From contig CAZQQL010000003.1 of NCBI GenBank assembly GCA_964595455.1, forward strand, positions 211 through 64,210: a stretch of DNA of 64,000 bases, given 5' to 3'. Source of the DNA: an uncultured Dehalococcoidaceae bacterium (GTDB lineage: Bacteria; Chloroflexota; Dehalococcoidia; Dehalococcoidales; RBG-16-60-22). Positions within the stretch are counted from its first letter, which is position 1, and each line of letters begins with the position of its first letter. Shown one piece after another: positions 1,512 through 17,962 of the stretch. Under the pieces are notes generated by a model, which saw only the letters and a list, made by a program, of their open reading frames with translations, did no database searches and was not told the origin of the DNA. The translations under genes and the position numbers were made by a program.

Positions 1512-2543
1512 TCAGACGCGCTTGCGTTTTGAAAAGTTCGGCGGGCGCTCGGCGGGACGGGAGGAATGCCTGCTTTGAGGCTTATGGTCTGTCGTTCTGG
1601 CAGGGCTAACGCCGGGTTTGACGTTTCTTCTCGGTCCTGGTCGTGGATTCGGTGTCGCCAGAGAATAAGGCGGGCGGTTTGCGGGTTTTCCCGGTGTGCG
1701 TGCCGCCGGTTTGCGGGCGGGTTTGCCGAACGGGTGGTATGGGACTTTCGAAGCCGGGGTCACGGCGGGCCTGGCCGCCGGTTTGGCCTGAGCTTTTCCT
1801 GTCTTCTTATCGGACGGGGCCCGGGCGGACCGCGTCAGTTCCTTGAGTTCGCGCCCGGTCAGGGGCCGGACCTCACCCTCTTCCAGTTCCCCGATGCGCA
1901 GCGTGCCGATCCGCGCCCGCTTGAGCGCCTTGACCGGATGGGTGATGTGCTCGAACATCCGGCGGACCTGCCGCTTCTTGCCTTCATGGATGATGATGCG
2001 GTAGTTGTAGTCGCCGCTGATGAGCCGTTTCACCACCGCCGGGGCGGTCATACCGTCTTCCAGCAGTATCCCGCGTTCCAGTCGCTGTAATTCGTCGTGG
2101 TTCAGCTTCTCATCCACCTGGACGAGGTATTCCTTCTCCTGCTCGAACTTCGGGTGCGTCAGCCGGTAGGTGAGATCGCCGTCATTGGTCAGCAGCAGGA
2201 GGCCGGTGGTATCGATGTCCAGCCGTCCCACCGGGAACAGGCGGTATTTCCTGTATTTGGCAGGCAGGAGGTCCAGCACCGTGGGACGGCCTTTTTCATC
2301 CGCGGCGGTGGAAACGACCCCCTCCGGCTTGTTGATCATGAGGCAGACGATCTGCTCCGCCTTGAGGTTGAGCCGCTGGCCGTTCAGGTAGACCTTGTCC
2401 CGCGCCGGGTCCACCGGCTGGTTGAAGGACTCCGCCATGACGCCGTTCACTTCGACTTTTCCCTGCTTTATGGCGTCCGCCATCCGCCGCCGCGAGCCGA
2501 TCCCGGCATCGGTAAGCGCTTTGATGAGTGGTATGGTAGGCAT
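1512..2543 (-). CDS. rluB: Pseudouridine synthase, RsuA/RluB family (S4 domain plus basic Pro/Lys/Arg-rich C-terminal tail)
   Basis: 343-aa ORF with an S4-like N-terminus (RRRMADAIKQGKVEVNG), catalytic-loop block FPVGRLDIDTTGLLLLTNDG, and IIIHEGKKRQVRRMF. Confidence 0.9.
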   Translation of the reverse strand: MPTIPLIKALTDAGIGSRRRMADAIKQGKVEVNGVMAESFNQPVDPARDKVYLNGQRLNLKAEQIVCLMINKPEGVVSTAADEKGRPTVLDLLPAKYRKYRLFPVGRLDIDTTGLLLLTNDGDLTYRLTHPKFEQEKEYLVQVDEKLNHDELQRLERGILLEDGMTAPAVVKRLISGDYNYRIIIHEGKKRQVRRMFEHITHPVKALKRARIGTLRIGELEEGEVRPLTGRELKELTRSARAPSDKKTGKAQAKPAARPAVTPASKVPYHPFGKPARKPAARTPGKPANRPPYSLATPNPRPGPRRNVKPGVSPARTTDHKPQSRHSSRPAERPPNFSKRKRV

Positions 2544-2684
2544 ACATCAAGTATACAGGGTACAGCGTAAAAGTAAAAAGCCGGAGACTATATCAAATAC
2601 ACGGATGGAAAACTGAAACCAACTCGGGCGTAGTTTTCACGTACAAGGCGGTATCTATGGCCCTCTGCAAATACGCCGCGTCTA

Positions 2685-2708
2685 CATCCCGTTAAAAAAC
2701 GGGATCCA
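2685..2708. repeat. Palindromic hairpin repeat CATCCCGTTRAAAAACGGGATCCA (copy 1 of 2)
   Basis: 23 of 24 nt identical to 10271-10294. The stem is ATCCCGTT / AACGGGAT. Intergenic. Confidence 0.8.
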
Positions 2709-2966
2709 GGTACAACCGGCGAAAAGTATTCTGGGTTCACCGATCACCAAAATGTAGGGTGGTTAAATCCCGTTTTCCCCATTTTACCCACCAATTATCC
2801 AGTCATGAGCCTACGTCCTGTAAGGGACCGTCTGCAAAAACCCCCGAAATAATCTCAGAACCTTCACGGCCATAGTTCGTAAGGCGGACTAAGAGTCCGC
2901 CGAAAATAGTAAACCCAAAAAGAAAATCCGCCAACCAGCCATTTTCAACCGTGCACCCGCTTTTTC

Positions 2967-3009
2967 TTTTTGACTTGTACTTTTGACCTTTGACTTCTGA
3001 ATTTTGACT
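2967..3009. repeat. Tandem heptamer array YTTTGAC (about 6 units)
   Basis: TTTTGAC TTGTAC TTTTGAC CTTTGAC TTCTGAA TTTTGAC. A second array is at 36172-36200 and a related inverted fragment at about 19718-19738. Confidence 0.6.
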
Positions 3010-3034
3010 TCCCCAAAAAAGTGACAAAACACCC

Positions 3035-3064
3035 TTGACAATATAAGAACATGTGTACTATTAT
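3035..3064 (+). promoter_or_regulatory. Near-consensus sigma70-type promoter
   Basis: TTGACA at 3035-3040, 18-nt spacer, TATTAT at 3059-3064 (alternatively TACTAT at 3056-3061 with a 15-nt spacer). No plus-strand CDS lies downstream. Confidence 0.5.
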
Positions 3065-3067
3065 TCA

Positions 3068-3530
3068 ATCACTGAAGGATATCCCGACCTCCTTCCGCCA
3101 CCGTCTGAAGCTGGATTTCGGGTCCGTGATACGGGGTTCCGCTCCGGCAGAGACCGAGTACAACGGGTGGAAAGCGCCTGTCCCGTTATCCCGGCTGACC
3201 GTAGGGAACGGGATCGCGTTTATCCGGGACCTCCGCCATGTAAGACGGAACGCCGGATAACGGAATGTACGGTGAGGACCGCTTTATGCGTGGGTCTTCT
3301 CCGGTGGCGATAAGGAACGGCGATGGTCCTTGGGACCTTAACAACTGAATAGAGAAACACCGCAGCTTCGGGGAAGACCTTAAGAAGAACAGAAGGAGAC
3401 TTTGTGCCAAAAACAGACCCTCCTGGCACGAAGACCTGTTCCGGCCATGAAAAATGTGCAGTTGTCATCCTGATGTCCCGACGTGTCGGTACGAAGGATT
3501 ATAGGGCAGAGCGGACCCTATGTTTGTGAG
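3068..3530 (+). ncRNA. Candidate large structured ncRNA, family unassigned
   Basis: ORF-free region downstream of the promoter with nested long-range complementarity. CGCCACCG 3096-3103 pairs with CGGTGGCG 3302-3309. CCGTTATCC(C)GGC 3183-3195 pairs with GCCGGATAACGG 3252-3263. GTGCCA 3404-3409 pairs with TGGCAC 3424-3429, enclosed by GAACAG 3387-3392 / CTGTTC 3436-3441. The ends are approximate. Confidence 0.4.
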
Positions 3531-3537
3531 TTATTCC

Positions 3538-4518
3538 TCAACCCTCGATCCCCCACAATGCCCGCCTTAAAGCCCGGTGGAAGTCCCCGGTGAAACGCTT
3601 GGAAATGTCTGCCTGCGGCGCCATCATATCGAAGGCGTGCGGCCCGCCGGGATACACATGCAGCTCCGTGGAAACACCCGCGTGGATGAGGCGCCTCGCG
3701 TACTCAACGTTCTCTTCCGAAAAGAGGTCCAGGTCGCCCACGGCGATGTACGCCGGCGGCAGCCCCGCCAGCGATTCCGCCCTTGAGGCCGCCGCGTAGC
3801 AGGAAACGCCCTCGCCGGCGGGGTCGCAACCAAGATAGCAGCGCCAGCCAACCAGGTTGCTGTTCCTTGTCCAGAACAGGGTGTCCGGTACGGTCTCACT
3901 GGCCGGTTCCGTGGTGCGGTCGTCGATCATCGGGTAGATGAGGAACTGGTGCAGAACATCCACCTCGCCGCGATCGCGGGCCAGCAGGGCCAGGCCAGCG
4001 GCCAGGCCGCCCCCCGCACTCCCCCCGCCGATGGCTATCCGCGCGCCGTCAGCGCCCAACTCGCGGGCGTTCTTCGCCAGCCACTTGAGGGCGGCATAGC
4101 AGTCCTCCACCGGGGCCGGGAACGGGTTCTCAGGAGCCAGACGGTAATCGACGGCCACGGTCAGGCAGTTCACAGTAAGCGTTAACTGGCGGGTCGGGTT
4201 ATCGTCCTGCTCCAGGTCGCCCATGATGTACCCGCCGCCGTGTATCCAGAGCAGCGCCGGCAGGACTCCGGTACTCTTCTCCGGGCGATAGATCCTCACC
4301 GGTACCTGAGGAGCGCCTTCCGGGCCCGGTACGCTGCGGTCTTCCACCTTCACGCCGGGAATGATCGGTATCATCCCCTTCGTCGCGGCGGCCATTCGCT
4401 TGGCGCCTTCTCTCGACTTCGGAATATCGTCGAAGTTGATGCCCATCGGCATGTTCAGCATGTTCGTGATCGGGCCTTTGAGTTCCGGGTCGAGCCGTGC
4501 CAGCAAACTCTCGTTCAT
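3538..4518 (-). CDS. Alpha/beta hydrolase, hormone-sensitive-lipase-type esterase
   Basis: 326 aa with oxyanion motif WIHGGGY, nucleophile elbow GGSAGG, and a C-terminal HAF block. Confidence 0.85.
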   Translation of the reverse strand: MNESLLARLDPELKGPITNMLNMPMGINFDDIPKSREGAKRMAAATKGMIPIIPGVKVEDRSVPGPEGAPQVPVRIYRPEKSTGVLPALLWIHGGGYIMGDLEQDDNPTRQLTLTVNCLTVAVDYRLAPENPFPAPVEDCYAALKWLAKNARELGADGARIAIGGGSAGGGLAAGLALLARDRGEVDVLHQFLIYPMIDDRTTEPASETVPDTLFWTRNSNLVGWRCYLGCDPAGEGVSCYAAASRAESLAGLPPAYIAVGDLDLFSEENVEYARRLIHAGVSTELHVYPGGPHAFDMMAPQADISKRFTGDFHRALRRALWGIEG

Positions 4519-4907: not shown

Positions 4908-6419
4908 TTAAAAGAGGGTAAGAGCTAACTGCTCTTTATTTTTTAAACGCTCGGCCGCATAGTGCACATACTGTTCCGTAAGGTTTAATTCTTTGCTTAG
5001 TTCATGTAGACTAAGTCTCTTCAGTAAGTCTAAAGTAATTGGACGTTTGTCTGACCAAAATATCATCGATTCATAATACTCACGAGCAGGTTCTGAGTTA
5101 AGTAAGTCTGCGACAAATTCAGCCTCTTCAACGGAATTACAGGGGATAAAGTACACTGTATCGTCAACAAAAACTGGTTTATTCTCGAAGGGTTCAATTA
5201 CCTTAAAACCGAGCTTCTTATAAAACCCTGAAATCGCTACCTTCCAAGGAGCAAATGAGTATGGACCAACACCGAAAATCGAGTATTTCGGTTTATTTTT
5301 GTATATTGAACTTGAGCGTTTACTAAAGGCTTCTTTATGAGCTTCAAGATAGTTCCAAGTTGCCTGAGCATTATTCTTGATTCTTTCAGTATCTTGTCCA
5401 ATATATTCCTGGGTCACTATCACGAATTTACTACCGTACCGAGGTTTACCGTTGCTAATATCCGAGCTTTTTAATAGAGGATAAAGATAGGTTTCTTCAA
5501 GGGAAACCACTTCATTCAGAGTGTTTTTGTATTCGTTTCCCATACGCTCGAGTTCCATTATTTTCGAGCAGTCATGCTTAATGCCAGATCGCCATTGATA
5601 GACGTTATTCGGGTTAAATAAGTGTTGCCATTTGGTGTATTTAGTGTTGTCTGAGATCAGTAAGCCGTTCTTGCAGGTAATGATACTAATTGGGTTTATG
5701 GAATCCAAACTAGTATATACGTTACATTCATATGACGTGATATTTGGCTGAAAGTGAGTAATAAAGAAGCAAGCTTCTACTGACACGTCGAAATACCGTT
5801 TTGCGTCAAATAGGTAGATGTTGGATCCACTCAATGAGATTCCGTTTTTATGGGCATATAACAATACCTTTTTTGCGACTGAAAACTTGCAGAGTATTGC
5901 TATGGCTCCACGTTTATTTTTCATCCAATCCAGATATTTGATTAGCATCCACTCTGAAATGTCAAAATTACTTTTACCAGTAATGGCGTCATAACCTTTT
6001 TGTTTTTGAAAATTGCTTTTCTGCGGTAGATTATTGCTTTGTATCGTTCCTAGATTAGAACTCGTCACCCACGGTGGGTTTCCCGTGATCAATACGGGTT
6101 CTTCGATGTCGTTTATGATCCCCGCCCAGTCTAGTTCAAAAAAGTTCCCTTGCATTAGTTCAGTTCTTTGCTCTAAACTCATTTGATTGATTGAAGATTG
6201 TAATGCAACTAGATACTGGGTAGAAATATCCATTCCAAGTAAATGAGCTTCCGGGAACAAAGCGGCTGCTGCGAGTAGAAATGAGCCTTTACCACAAGTG
6301 GGTTCAATTATACAAGCAGGTCTGAAATTGGTTGCCTCTAAGACACTCAAAGCGGTGGTCGCTAACTTATAAGGGGTTTGAAAATCCCCATACTCTTTGT
6401 GTTTGTATTTGTTTTTCAC
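4908..6419 (-). CDS. N6-adenine DNA methyltransferase, gamma-class (TaqI/Eco57I-like) with C-terminal target-recognition region
   Basis: 503 aa. Motif order is GDFQTP (motif X), EPTCGKGSF (motif I, SAM binding), NPPW (motif IV). Strongly AT-rich codon usage compared with the neighbours. Confidence 0.85.
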   Translation of the reverse strand: MKNKYKHKEYGDFQTPYKLATTALSVLEATNFRPACIIEPTCGKGSFLLAAAALFPEAHLLGMDISTQYLVALQSSINQMSLEQRTELMQGNFFELDWAGIINDIEEPVLITGNPPWVTSSNLGTIQSNNLPQKSNFQKQKGYDAITGKSNFDISEWMLIKYLDWMKNKRGAIAILCKFSVAKKVLLYAHKNGISLSGSNIYLFDAKRYFDVSVEACFFITHFQPNITSYECNVYTSLDSINPISIITCKNGLLISDNTKYTKWQHLFNPNNVYQWRSGIKHDCSKIMELERMGNEYKNTLNEVVSLEETYLYPLLKSSDISNGKPRYGSKFVIVTQEYIGQDTERIKNNAQATWNYLEAHKEAFSKRSSSIYKNKPKYSIFGVGPYSFAPWKVAISGFYKKLGFKVIEPFENKPVFVDDTVYFIPCNSVEEAEFVADLLNSEPAREYYESMIFWSDKRPITLDLLKRLSLHELSKELNLTEQYVHYAAERLKNKEQLALTLF

Positions 6420-6423
6420 AGGA

Positions 6424-7122
6424 CTAATTCACTCTGACAATACCTTTGGTAGTATCAGCAAGTTTTATGACCCTACTATATTGTAGCCTCCATTGGAGTG
6501 CATTGGAGATGGTCAGGTAACCTAATTCAGGCGGCTCTATAATAAGTTCTTCTGCAATAGCTTGTCGCTCTATCTCATCACAGGGCAATAGTCTGTCTTC
6601 CATAAATGCCATCAGATCTTCAGAAGTTCCTTCATTCTGTAGAATTTGTAAGATGCCTGTTGTCGTCTGAAAATCAGCCGTTTTTTCCTTTTCAACGAAG
6701 ATCGTGTGCAGAATATTCAAGCAACCGGTTTGTTGAGTATGGTCATCGGATTTTTCATAAACAAATAATAAGAGCGAATAGCCTAAGCCGAATATCTTTT
6801 GTCTTGCGGATTTGAATGGGCAAGATGATTGAGGTTGTTTCATACTGGTGACCTTGATATCCACTTCAATATGAGGGATGTCAATTCCAAGCGCTGAATT
6901 CCCCGGTGGAAAATTGTATTTCTCCAATAGGTGAGCGGTGAATTTGTGCTCAAGGTATGTCCCAACAGCTTTACCATCTGTAACTCCATACAAAGCAGGT
7001 TCATTGTGGGTACTTTCTTTGATAGAGAATGCTTTGGCCTCTTTAAATAGGTTGGCTAAATCTAGAGTTTTCTTTTTCACTATAACACACACCGTCTTCA
7101 AATGATGCCTGCATTCTAACAC
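6424..7122 (-). CDS. Putative PD-(D/E)xK restriction endonuclease partner of the methyltransferase
   Basis: 232 aa, ending 4 nt upstream of the methyltransferase start, with the same AT-rich composition. Candidate catalytic block GIDIPHIEVDIKV (D...E/DxK). The start codon is uncertain. Function is inferred from context plus this motif. Confidence 0.55.
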   Translation of the reverse strand: MLECRHHLKTVCVIVKKKTLDLANLFKEAKAFSIKESTHNEPALYGVTDGKAVGTYLEHKFTAHLLEKYNFPPGNSALGIDIPHIEVDIKVTSMKQPQSSCPFKSARQKIFGLGYSLLLFVYEKSDDHTQQTGCLNILHTIFVEKEKTADFQTTTGILQILQNEGTSEDLMAFMEDRLLPCDEIERQAIAEELIIEPPELGYLTISNALQWRLQYSRVIKLADTTKGIVRVN

Positions 7123-10270: not shown

Positions 10271-10294
10271 CATCCCGTTGAAAAACGGGATCCA
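10271..10294. repeat. Palindromic hairpin repeat CATCCCGTTRAAAAACGGGATCCA (copy 2 of 2)
   Basis: 23 of 24 nt identical to 2685-2708. A second hairpin, GATCCCGGCTGCTGCCGGGATG, follows at about 10321-10342. Confidence 0.8.
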
Positions 10295-17692: not shown

Positions 17693-17962
17693 GAGGTCGT
17701 GCTAGACGGGGAGTTAGCGGTGCCCTGTACCTGAAACCCGCTATAGCAGGGTCGAATTCCCGCTTGAGGCTCTCATCTGGTAGGACTGCTAACGGTAAGC
17801 AGCGTTGAAGGCTGGGTCCTGCGCGGCGGAACGCCGTGAACCCCGTCAGGTCTGAGAGGAAGCAGCGGTAAACGGATAATTCCGGGTGCCGCAGGGTTGC
17901 CTGGCTGGAGCCGGCTGCCGGAGGCAAGCTGGTTGGTGGTGTCGAGAGTGGGTGCACGGCCT
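17693..17962 (+). ncRNA. ffs: Signal recognition particle RNA, long (Bacillus-type, with Alu domain)
   Basis: Domain IV motif GTCAGGTCTGAGAGGAAGCAGC at 17845-17866. The 5' block GTGCTAGACGGGGAGTTAGCGGTGCCCTGTACCTGAAACCCGCTATAGCAGGGTCGAAT and the 3' block GTGCCGCAGGGTTGCCTGG closely parallel the B. subtilis scRNA as I recall it. The 5' end GAGGTCGTGC pairs with the 3' end GCACGGCCTC. Confidence 0.9.

Follow-up and report, generated by a model that had tools for sequence, protein, structure and literature searches.

The 64,000-nucleotide (nt) stretch of DNA analyzed here, referred to as the window, comes from an uncultured Dehalococcoidaceae bacterium and contains, between rluB and an esterase gene, an element at 3035-3537 on the plus strand that is probably an independent gene for a structured non-coding RNA of a family not in Rfam. 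The gap between the two genes measures 994 nt, and the candidate RNA runs convergently toward the esterase. An initial annotation had proposed for this site a structured RNA of about 450 nt that stands alone and has a promoter of its own. The core of this proposal is supported by two homologs, which keep the promoter and the sequence but not a reading frame, and by substitutions that spare the stems of the plus strand. We infer the ends of the transcript, its exact fold and any function.

Promoter, homologous copies and strand

Homologs of the element were obtained by an exhaustive phmmer search with the translated frame 3039-3257 against 1.84 billion representatives, a translated query being used because gene callers often call spurious open reading frames (ORFs) in non-coding DNA. 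The matches were P0121 (69 amino acids (aa), 87% identity) and P0122 (114 aa), and the contigs of both carry the element: L098 (651 nt, NCBI GCA_030153545.1) and L099 (570 nt, ENA ERZ27284373). The copies of the element compared here are three, those of the window, L098 and L099. Upstream of about 2880 the window and L098 are unalignable (below 50% identity); over 2887-2957 their identity is 70-80%, and from 2957 to the end of the contig at 3413 it is 90-100%. The window and L099 are 84% identical over 3065-3364 and 57% identical, with large deletions, thereafter, until a short stem is conserved again at 3467-3499. The flanks differ in L098 and L099.

The sigma-70-type promoter in front of the element matches the consensus at 11 of 12 positions, a quality that about 0.9% of dinucleotide shuffles of the spacer reach, which places the promoter beyond chance. 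The 64 kb contain a single further match of this quality, immediately in front of an ORF. The two hexamers and their 18-nt spacing are unchanged in the window, L098 and L099, substitutions in the promoter region being confined to the spacer, such that the element possesses its own conserved promoter, TTGACA-18-TATTAT, in all three copies. Transcription would start near 3071. The region immediately upstream (2957-3034) is 90-94% identical in L098; the L099 contig begins at window position 3012 and AAAAAAGTGACAAAAC is kept there.

Direct repeats of TTTGAC(C/T) upstream of the promoter (window 2971-3040) are conserved in L098. A degenerate copy of the repeat, with 26 of 36 positions matching, was noted in the RNA-less spacer of L094, a close relative described below (about 2090-2125), and the 12-mer TTTGACCTTTGA is present in the closest genome, L001, in inverted orientation (about 1085-1105). 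The repeats may serve as sites for a regulator or be an ancestral element of the spacer.

The pattern of substitutions was compared with the minimum free energy (MFE) fold of the plus strand of the window alone, which was computed blind to the homologs. Substitutions in L099 affect 10% of the paired but 29% of the unpaired positions (Fisher p=7e-5). The same difference is seen when G/C columns and A/T columns are taken one at a time, and rotating the structure attains it in only 1 of 290 cases. By contrast, the substitutions do not spare the stems of the minus-strand MFE fold (p=0.5). Read on the plus strand, several conserved pairs are G-U, whereas the minus strand would have C-A in their place; likewise, the observed changes from U-G to U-A and from U-A to U-G fit the plus strand only. 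In two hairpins, 3119-3141 and 3345-3371, the loop varies on a stem that is maintained, although the stem of the former is partly broken in L099. At the level of sequence comparison, these data establish the conservation of the element and its assignment to the plus strand.

From the start of rluB at 2543 to the stop codon of the esterase at 3538 there is no convincing ORF and Pfam finds nothing, in agreement with the initial annotation, which had seen no protein-like ORF in the gap. The codon usage of the spacer ORFs is non-coding-like, with the exception of one borderline 69-aa ORF at 3051-3260 (codon score 0.138; third-position GC content (GC3) 0.67), which is uninterrupted in both the window and L098; its ATG, situated between the -35 box and the -10 box, falls outside the predicted transcript. 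In the core of L099 the frame is broken by three 1-nt indels, and P0122 is a mosaic of three frames. Substitutions at codon positions 1/2/3 of the sole coding-like frame, frame A, number 4/6/6 in L098 and 6/8/9 in L099, which is no third-position excess, and frame B is also without bias. A 41-aa ORF at 3404-3529 (3392-3529 with its well-spaced ribosome-binding site GAAGGAG) has a site that is conserved in L098; in L099, replacement or deletion has removed the GAAGGAG site, the GTG start and most of the ORF. The ORF is non-coding-like in codon usage and encodes no membrane-spanning hydrophobic stretch. Because of the 1-nt indels in L099 and the absence of a third-codon-position bias, the element proves, by comparison of its copies, to be non-coding. 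A conserved small reading frame, which the initial annotation had named as an argument against its own proposal, does not occur among the homologs.

Predicted anatomy of the RNA

The features of the locus are collected in the table. In the alignment of the window, L098 and L099 (A3), the column number equals the window coordinate minus 3064.

Table. Position and composition of the candidate RNA, its promoter and other annotated features of the window
Feature	Coordinates	Strand	Remarks
rluB	1512-2543	-	PseudoU_synth_2 and S4 domains
Conserved upstream region	2957-3034	+	TTTGAC direct repeats (2971-3010), A-tract, GTGACA
Sigma-70-type promoter	3035-3064	+	TTGACA (3035-3040), 18 nt, TATTAT (3059-3064); 11/12 to consensus
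5' domain, conserved	3072-3334	+	about 265 nt; closing helix 3072-3080/3326-3334; RNAalifold consensus
Long helix	3090-3316	+	3090-3102/3303-3316; includes CGCCACCG/CGGTGGCG and CCTT/AAGG; pairing probability about 1 in the window
Hairpin arm	3103-3154	+	variable tip 3119-3141, the most variable part of the core
Multi-branch junction	3158-3270	+	closed by 3158-3162/3266-3270; hairpins 3163-3181 (GAAAG loop), 3182-3212, 3214-3264
Hairpin GAGGACC.../...GGUCUUC	3271-3302	+	invariant in three copies; pairing probability 0.7-1.0
Hairpin CUGAA/UUCGG	3345-3371	+	stem invariant; 17-nt loop almost wholly different in L099
Variable linker	3372-3466	+	proposed helices 3387-3441 and start of the 41-aa ORF; mostly deleted or replaced in L099
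3' hairpin AUCCU.../...AGGAU	3467-3499	+	outer stem conserved in L099
Terminator-like hairpin and tail	3500-3537	+	predicted fold; hairpin 3500-3522, U-rich tail GUUUGUGAGUUAUU; stops at the esterase stop codon
Esterase (Abhydrolase_3)	3538-4518	-	Pfam; convergent to the candidate RNA
Signal recognition particle (SRP) RNA	17697-17959		only match in the window at Rfam gathering thresholds

In the proposed mechanism, the near-consensus sigma-70 promoter would start transcription near the predicted site, and the first 265 or so nt of the transcript would fold into a closed multi-helix domain whose 5' end pairs with 3326-3334. This domain would hold the long helix, the arm with its variable tip, the junction of three hairpins and a further hairpin. 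The poorly conserved linker would follow, and then a 3' stem-loop and a U-rich tail, with which the transcript would end just before the convergent esterase. The predicted length of the RNA is about 465 nt in the window and about 395 nt in L099.

The 5' domain is 94% identical in L098 and 84% identical in L099. The pair 3072-3334 of its closing helix changes from C-G to U-A in L099, and two U-G pairs of the domain change to C-G. The long helix is intact in L098; in L099, 3 of its 12 pairs are broken, and a shifted register, UUCC/GGAA, is still possible. Within the arm, two double-sided pair changes (C-G to U-A and G-C to C-G) and one change from U-G to C-G separate the window from L098, where the stem of the tip is kept through these compensatory changes. 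The junction is 96% identical over the three sequences: its paired changes all lead to G-U and the others lie in loops. A covariance model of the junction region (R1, 3155-3275) scores 138-150 bits on all three copies. Toward the 3' end, the inner pairs UGU/ACG of the 3' hairpin become UGU/ACA in L099, a change from U-G to U-A that again fits the plus strand only. The 3' end of the transcript is predicted to lie within 3500-3537; the equivalent place in L099 is occupied by a different long hairpin, after which comes UAUUUU.

All promoter hexamers and complementary segments listed in the initial annotation lie where it had placed them. The segments CGCCACCG/CGGTGGCG, CCTT/AAGG, GGTCC/GGACC, GTGCCA/TGGCAC and GAACAG/CTGTTC, as well as GGTCTTC with both copies of GAAGACC, are exact reverse complements; CCGTTATCC(C)GGC is complementary to GCCGGATAACGG with one bulge, as described, and GGTCTTC is complementary to GAGGACC if one G-U pair is allowed. 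Complementarity did not always translate into a supported helix. The helices 3096-3102/3303-3309, 3091-3094/3312-3315 and 3293-3299/3274-3280 fit both the ensemble and the homologs, all three being kept in L098 and the first two partly broken in L099; their pairing probabilities range from 0.72 to 1.0 and are mostly at least 0.97. By contrast, the 12-bp helix postulated at 3183-3195/3252-3263 has a pairing probability of 0.02 and acquires a C-A mismatch in both homologs through T3187C, each of its strands forming a local hairpin instead. The proposed hairpin 3325-3337 loses 2 of its 5 pairs in L099, and its 5' strand belongs to the closing helix 3072-3080/3326-3334, with the compensatory change from C-G to U-A. 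Three alternative partners of GGTCTTC had been taken to indicate a pseudoknot or a conformational switch; the two additional partners, the GAAGACC copies, have a pairing probability of 0, and in L099 one is lost and the other deleted, which leaves the pseudoknot or switch without support. Nor do the helices at 3387-3441 find support, as the segment is absent from L099.

In the single sequence, 48 stems of 6 nt are counted, compared with 29+-7 in shuffles, of which 3 of 300 reach 48. The MFE z-score is -1.70 on the plus strand and -2.56 on the minus strand, against a background for 471-nt segments of the window with a mean of -0.24 and a standard deviation of 0.92; locally, at 3150-3299 on the minus strand, it is -2.7 to -3.1. 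The structure of the single sequence exceeds chance only modestly, on both the MFE z-scores and the stem counts, and for this reason the earlier description as highly structured was overstated.

Distribution and rival explanations

A search with the 4227 models of Rfam 15, at the gathering thresholds and in a permissive mode (E<=10), found no family that matches the candidate or its homologs, even at E<=10, save for chance-level matches on the minus strand; the statement in the initial annotation that the RNA cannot be assigned to a known family thus stands. The E-value mode picked up ylbH (E=0.71) as well as the L31 leader (E=5.6) in region 2500-3600, each on the minus strand and far below threshold, and L098 and L099 gave RAGATH-32 (E=0.29) and the L31 leader (E=6.2), also on the minus strand. 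The ylbH-leader-like match lies at 2755-2912, upstream of rluB, with 16.9 bits for a threshold of 50, and was treated as chance. ARAGORN detected no tRNA or transfer-messenger RNA, and a literature search on non-coding RNAs of Dehalococcoidia or Chloroflexi yielded only an unrelated rdhA motif.

The element is narrowly distributed. In the closest genome, L001, the esterase is about 92% identical and the gap between rluB and the esterase is about 150 nt; in a second close relative, L094, the esterase is 92% identical and the spacer is 328 nt. With both, the spacer of the window shares only two short pieces, namely 18 nt at the ATG of rluB, including a TATACT box, and about 12 nt after the esterase stop codon. 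The intervening 960 or so nt (2562 to about 3524) are specific to the lineage of the window. In 547 kb of fetched DNA, the covariance model R1 recovered the three known copies and no others; the 64-kb window, which is all of this genome that was checked, contains no second copy, and neither do those 547 kb of loci. A blastn comparison of the spacer with phage and plasmid records revealed no similarity, and exact-pattern scans of viral contigs gave no match to the element.

Several observations weigh against the interpretation as an RNA gene. The element is absent from the rluB/esterase spacer of the two closest genomes, L001 and L094, and from 93 rluB loci (14 genomic, 79 metagenomic) searched by blastn, nhmmer, profile nhmmer and the covariance model R1; because it is absent from these 93 loci, it is regarded as dispensable and rare. 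Both homologous contigs are shorter than 700 nt. RNAalifold predicts 97 pairs with 3 compensatory changes and 6 exchanges between G-U and Watson-Crick pairs, against 7 broken cells; the compensatory counts are not significant, as 34 of 500 shuffles reach the observed value. Two of the three sequences are 94% alike. With three sequences and such shuffles, the covariation is suggestive only. Among the pairs that change in L099, 7 are broken and 6-7 kept, and since pairs break about as often as they are kept, the detailed fold is uncertain. A consensus terminator scan calls no terminator, including at the hairpin 3500-3522, and the folding energy of the single sequence is unremarkable.

Several of these points also feed the explanation that survives best among the rivals, according to which the region is young neutral intergenic DNA whose copies are alike only through recent divergence, the promoter-like site and stems being functionless and any transcript being noise. 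We regard it as unlikely. It would accommodate the small number of copies and their 84-94% identity, the hypervariability of the spacer among relatives (150, 328 and 994 nt), the weak folding energy and covariation, and a GC content of 49-54%, below the approximately 60% of the genome. Arguing against neutrality is the strongly uneven divergence within the same pairs of sequences (94% vs 70% vs unalignable with L098; 84% vs 57% with L099). Furthermore, the substitutions avoid the stems of the plus strand and not those of the minus strand, and the hexamers are invariant even though their spacer varies, in a promoter of a quality that is rare by chance.

Less probable still is that the element is a fragment of something larger, either a riboswitch- or T-box-like leader whose gene has been lost or rearranged or the outward-reading end of a mobile element. 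With its promoter, multi-stem domain and 3' hairpin with a U-rich tail, the candidate does share the layout of an attenuator leader, and a stretch, GGGUGGAAAGCGCC, loosely recalls what we take to be T-box sequence. In L099 the sequence past the 3' hairpin is not that of the esterase and frames on the plus strand are open there, the contig ending 120 nt further on and its downstream context being limited to that. The sporadic distribution, the differing flanks of L098 and L099, and the presence in the neighborhood of another strain-specific insertion, a restriction-modification island, would likewise suit a fragment. However, in the window no co-oriented gene follows, the next gene being the convergent esterase, such that the initial annotation was right in excluding a 5' leader or riboswitch in this genome; and this is so despite an intact promoter and 94% identity to L098. 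Nor does any riboswitch, T-box, aptamer or leader model of Rfam match at E<=10, apart from two chance-level matches on the opposite strand. As for a mobile element, the boundaries of the block lack terminal inverted repeats, no transposase or integrase is found among the ORFs scanned with Pfam within about 12 kb, and the phage, plasmid and viral collections contain no match. One imperfect inverted repeat of 25 nt (2560-2584/2956-2980) does exist, but it is A/T-rich and does not convince as the end of a mobile element. A miniature inverted-repeat transposable element or insertion sequence end was rejected for the lack of terminal inverted repeats and of a second copy.

It is very improbable that the functional strand is the minus strand, with the region serving as a long structured 3' untranslated region of the DUF1801-esterase operon or encoding an RNA read toward rluB. 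Both flanking genes lie on the minus strand, which also has the better MFE z-score, overall and at 3150-3299. Nevertheless, substitutions in L099 do not spare its stems (p=0.5 and 0.07), its counterparts of the conserved G-U pairs and of the U-G/U-A exchanges would not pair, and the conserved promoter faces the other way; in addition, rluB has a -10 box of its own 6 nt upstream of its ATG, and the esterases of L001 and L094 do without this sequence. A small protein is scarcely credible, since the 69-aa ORF, for all its integrity in two copies and borderline codon usage, and the 41-aa ORF, with its ribosome-binding site shared with L098, both fail in L099 and have no Pfam match. The strand-specific substitution pattern and the frame shifts contradict these last two explanations.

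Among known RNAs, the candidate resembles the large ornate RNAs OLE, ROOL, GOLLD and raiA (presumably RF01071, RF03087, RF01998 and RF03072) in standing alone, having its own promoter, being several hundred nt long with many helices, and showing a patchy, narrow distribution and no known biochemical role. It differs in its smaller size, with a conserved core of about 265 nt, in that no conserved partner genes are seen, and in its absence from phage and viral collections; only three copies of it are known. With hok-like type I toxin mRNAs it has in common a long structured transcript, pairing between the 5' and 3' ends, a lineage-specific intergenic locus and a small ORF with a ribosome-binding site near the 3' end, but that ORF is not conserved in L099, not hydrophobic and non-coding-like in codon usage. 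Like 6S/Ms1-type RNAs, it stands alone behind a strong promoter and has a long, irregularly paired body; unlike them, it matches no 6S model and is absent from close relatives, which is not the behavior of a housekeeping RNA. A CsrA-type sponge was considered and rejected, as GGA motifs are not clearly enriched on reading of the sequence. A pseudogene remnant was likewise discarded: when the ORFs of 97 related loci were all compared with the spacer by tblastn, only noise resulted.

In the preferred interpretation as an RNA gene, the RNA would be accessory, since near relatives lack it at the same site, and would act in trans rather than as a leader, because no co-oriented gene follows and the spacer of the nearest relatives is without the element. 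It might serve as a protein-binding scaffold or a regulator.

Surrounding locus and significance

The source genome has a GC content of about 60%. The nearest matches of the RluB and esterase proteins of the window come from metagenome-assembled genomes of uncultured Dehalococcoidales and Dehalococcoidaceae; neither protein occurs in identical form in the gene index searched. The SRP RNA had been noticed earlier, at 17693; it is present there, with the coordinates given in the table.

On the minus strand, the TATACT box of rluB ends 6 nt 5' of the ATG and there is no ribosome-binding site (2544-2577); this arrangement suggests that the rluB mRNA is leaderless. The C-terminal tail of RluB is rich in Pro, Lys and Arg (window 1512-1830, minus strand; L001 1145-2293), and the length of the protein varies among close relatives, from 343 aa in the window to 382 aa in L001.

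A 24-nt palindromic hairpin, CATCCCGTT(G/A)AAAAACGGGATCCA, whose 8-bp stem is capped by a loop of GAAA or AAAA, occurs in nearly identical copies at 2685-2708 and 10271-10294 of the window and at 1599-1622 of L052, a distant Dehalococcoidia-like contig. The word ATCCCGTT is found 9 times in the window, for 2.9 expected, and 4 of the 9 lie inside the 1-kb spacer; words of the palindrome stem also flank the hairpin 3182-3212 of the candidate RNA. The palindrome may be a REP-like (repetitive extragenic palindromic) element or a protein-binding site. The most significant local fold of the spacer is at 2850-2999 on the minus strand (z -3.5 to -3.7) and includes an 11-bp stem between an A-tract and a U-tract (2916-2926/2962-2972) and a hairpin, GGCGGACU-CUU-AGUCCGCC. 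L094 and L098 have a similar hairpin followed by AAAATA, and the structure could be the end site of transcripts of the esterase operon.

Beyond the esterase, at 4908-7122, lies an island of low GC content (37-42%, compared with about 60% for the genome). It carries the gene of a 503-aa MmeI/N6_Mtase-like methyltransferase, along with an ORF of 232 aa that has no Pfam match. In the relatives L094 and L095, DUF1801 or the esterase directly adjoins RsfS and NDK without the island, which on this basis appears to be a restriction-modification insertion specific to the strain.

Dehalococcoidia, most of them uncultured, are abundant; to our knowledge, hardly any non-coding RNAs other than the universal ones have been described in them. 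It is plausible that the element is an orphan, lineage-restricted structured non-coding RNA of a familiar kind that forms a new family. A more far-reaching interpretation, which we consider doubtful, is that a class of large structured RNA, new and specific to an uncultured Dehalococcoidales lineage, is seen here for the first time, as a mobile accessory gene whose conserved multi-junction domain of about 265 nt has a biochemical task of its own; that task might, for instance, be forming a ribonucleoprotein, binding a ligand or catalyzing a reaction. The evidence is sufficient for searching raw metagenome assemblies and metatranscriptomes in a targeted way, but not for a functional claim. If the interpretation as an RNA gene is correct, its accessory distribution, in one lineage and not in the spacer of near relatives, would single the RNA out as a candidate either for regulation that differs between strains or for a function tied to mobile DNA, and a conserved, promoter-driven structured RNA of several hundred nt without any match in Rfam would extend the known RNA families by one.

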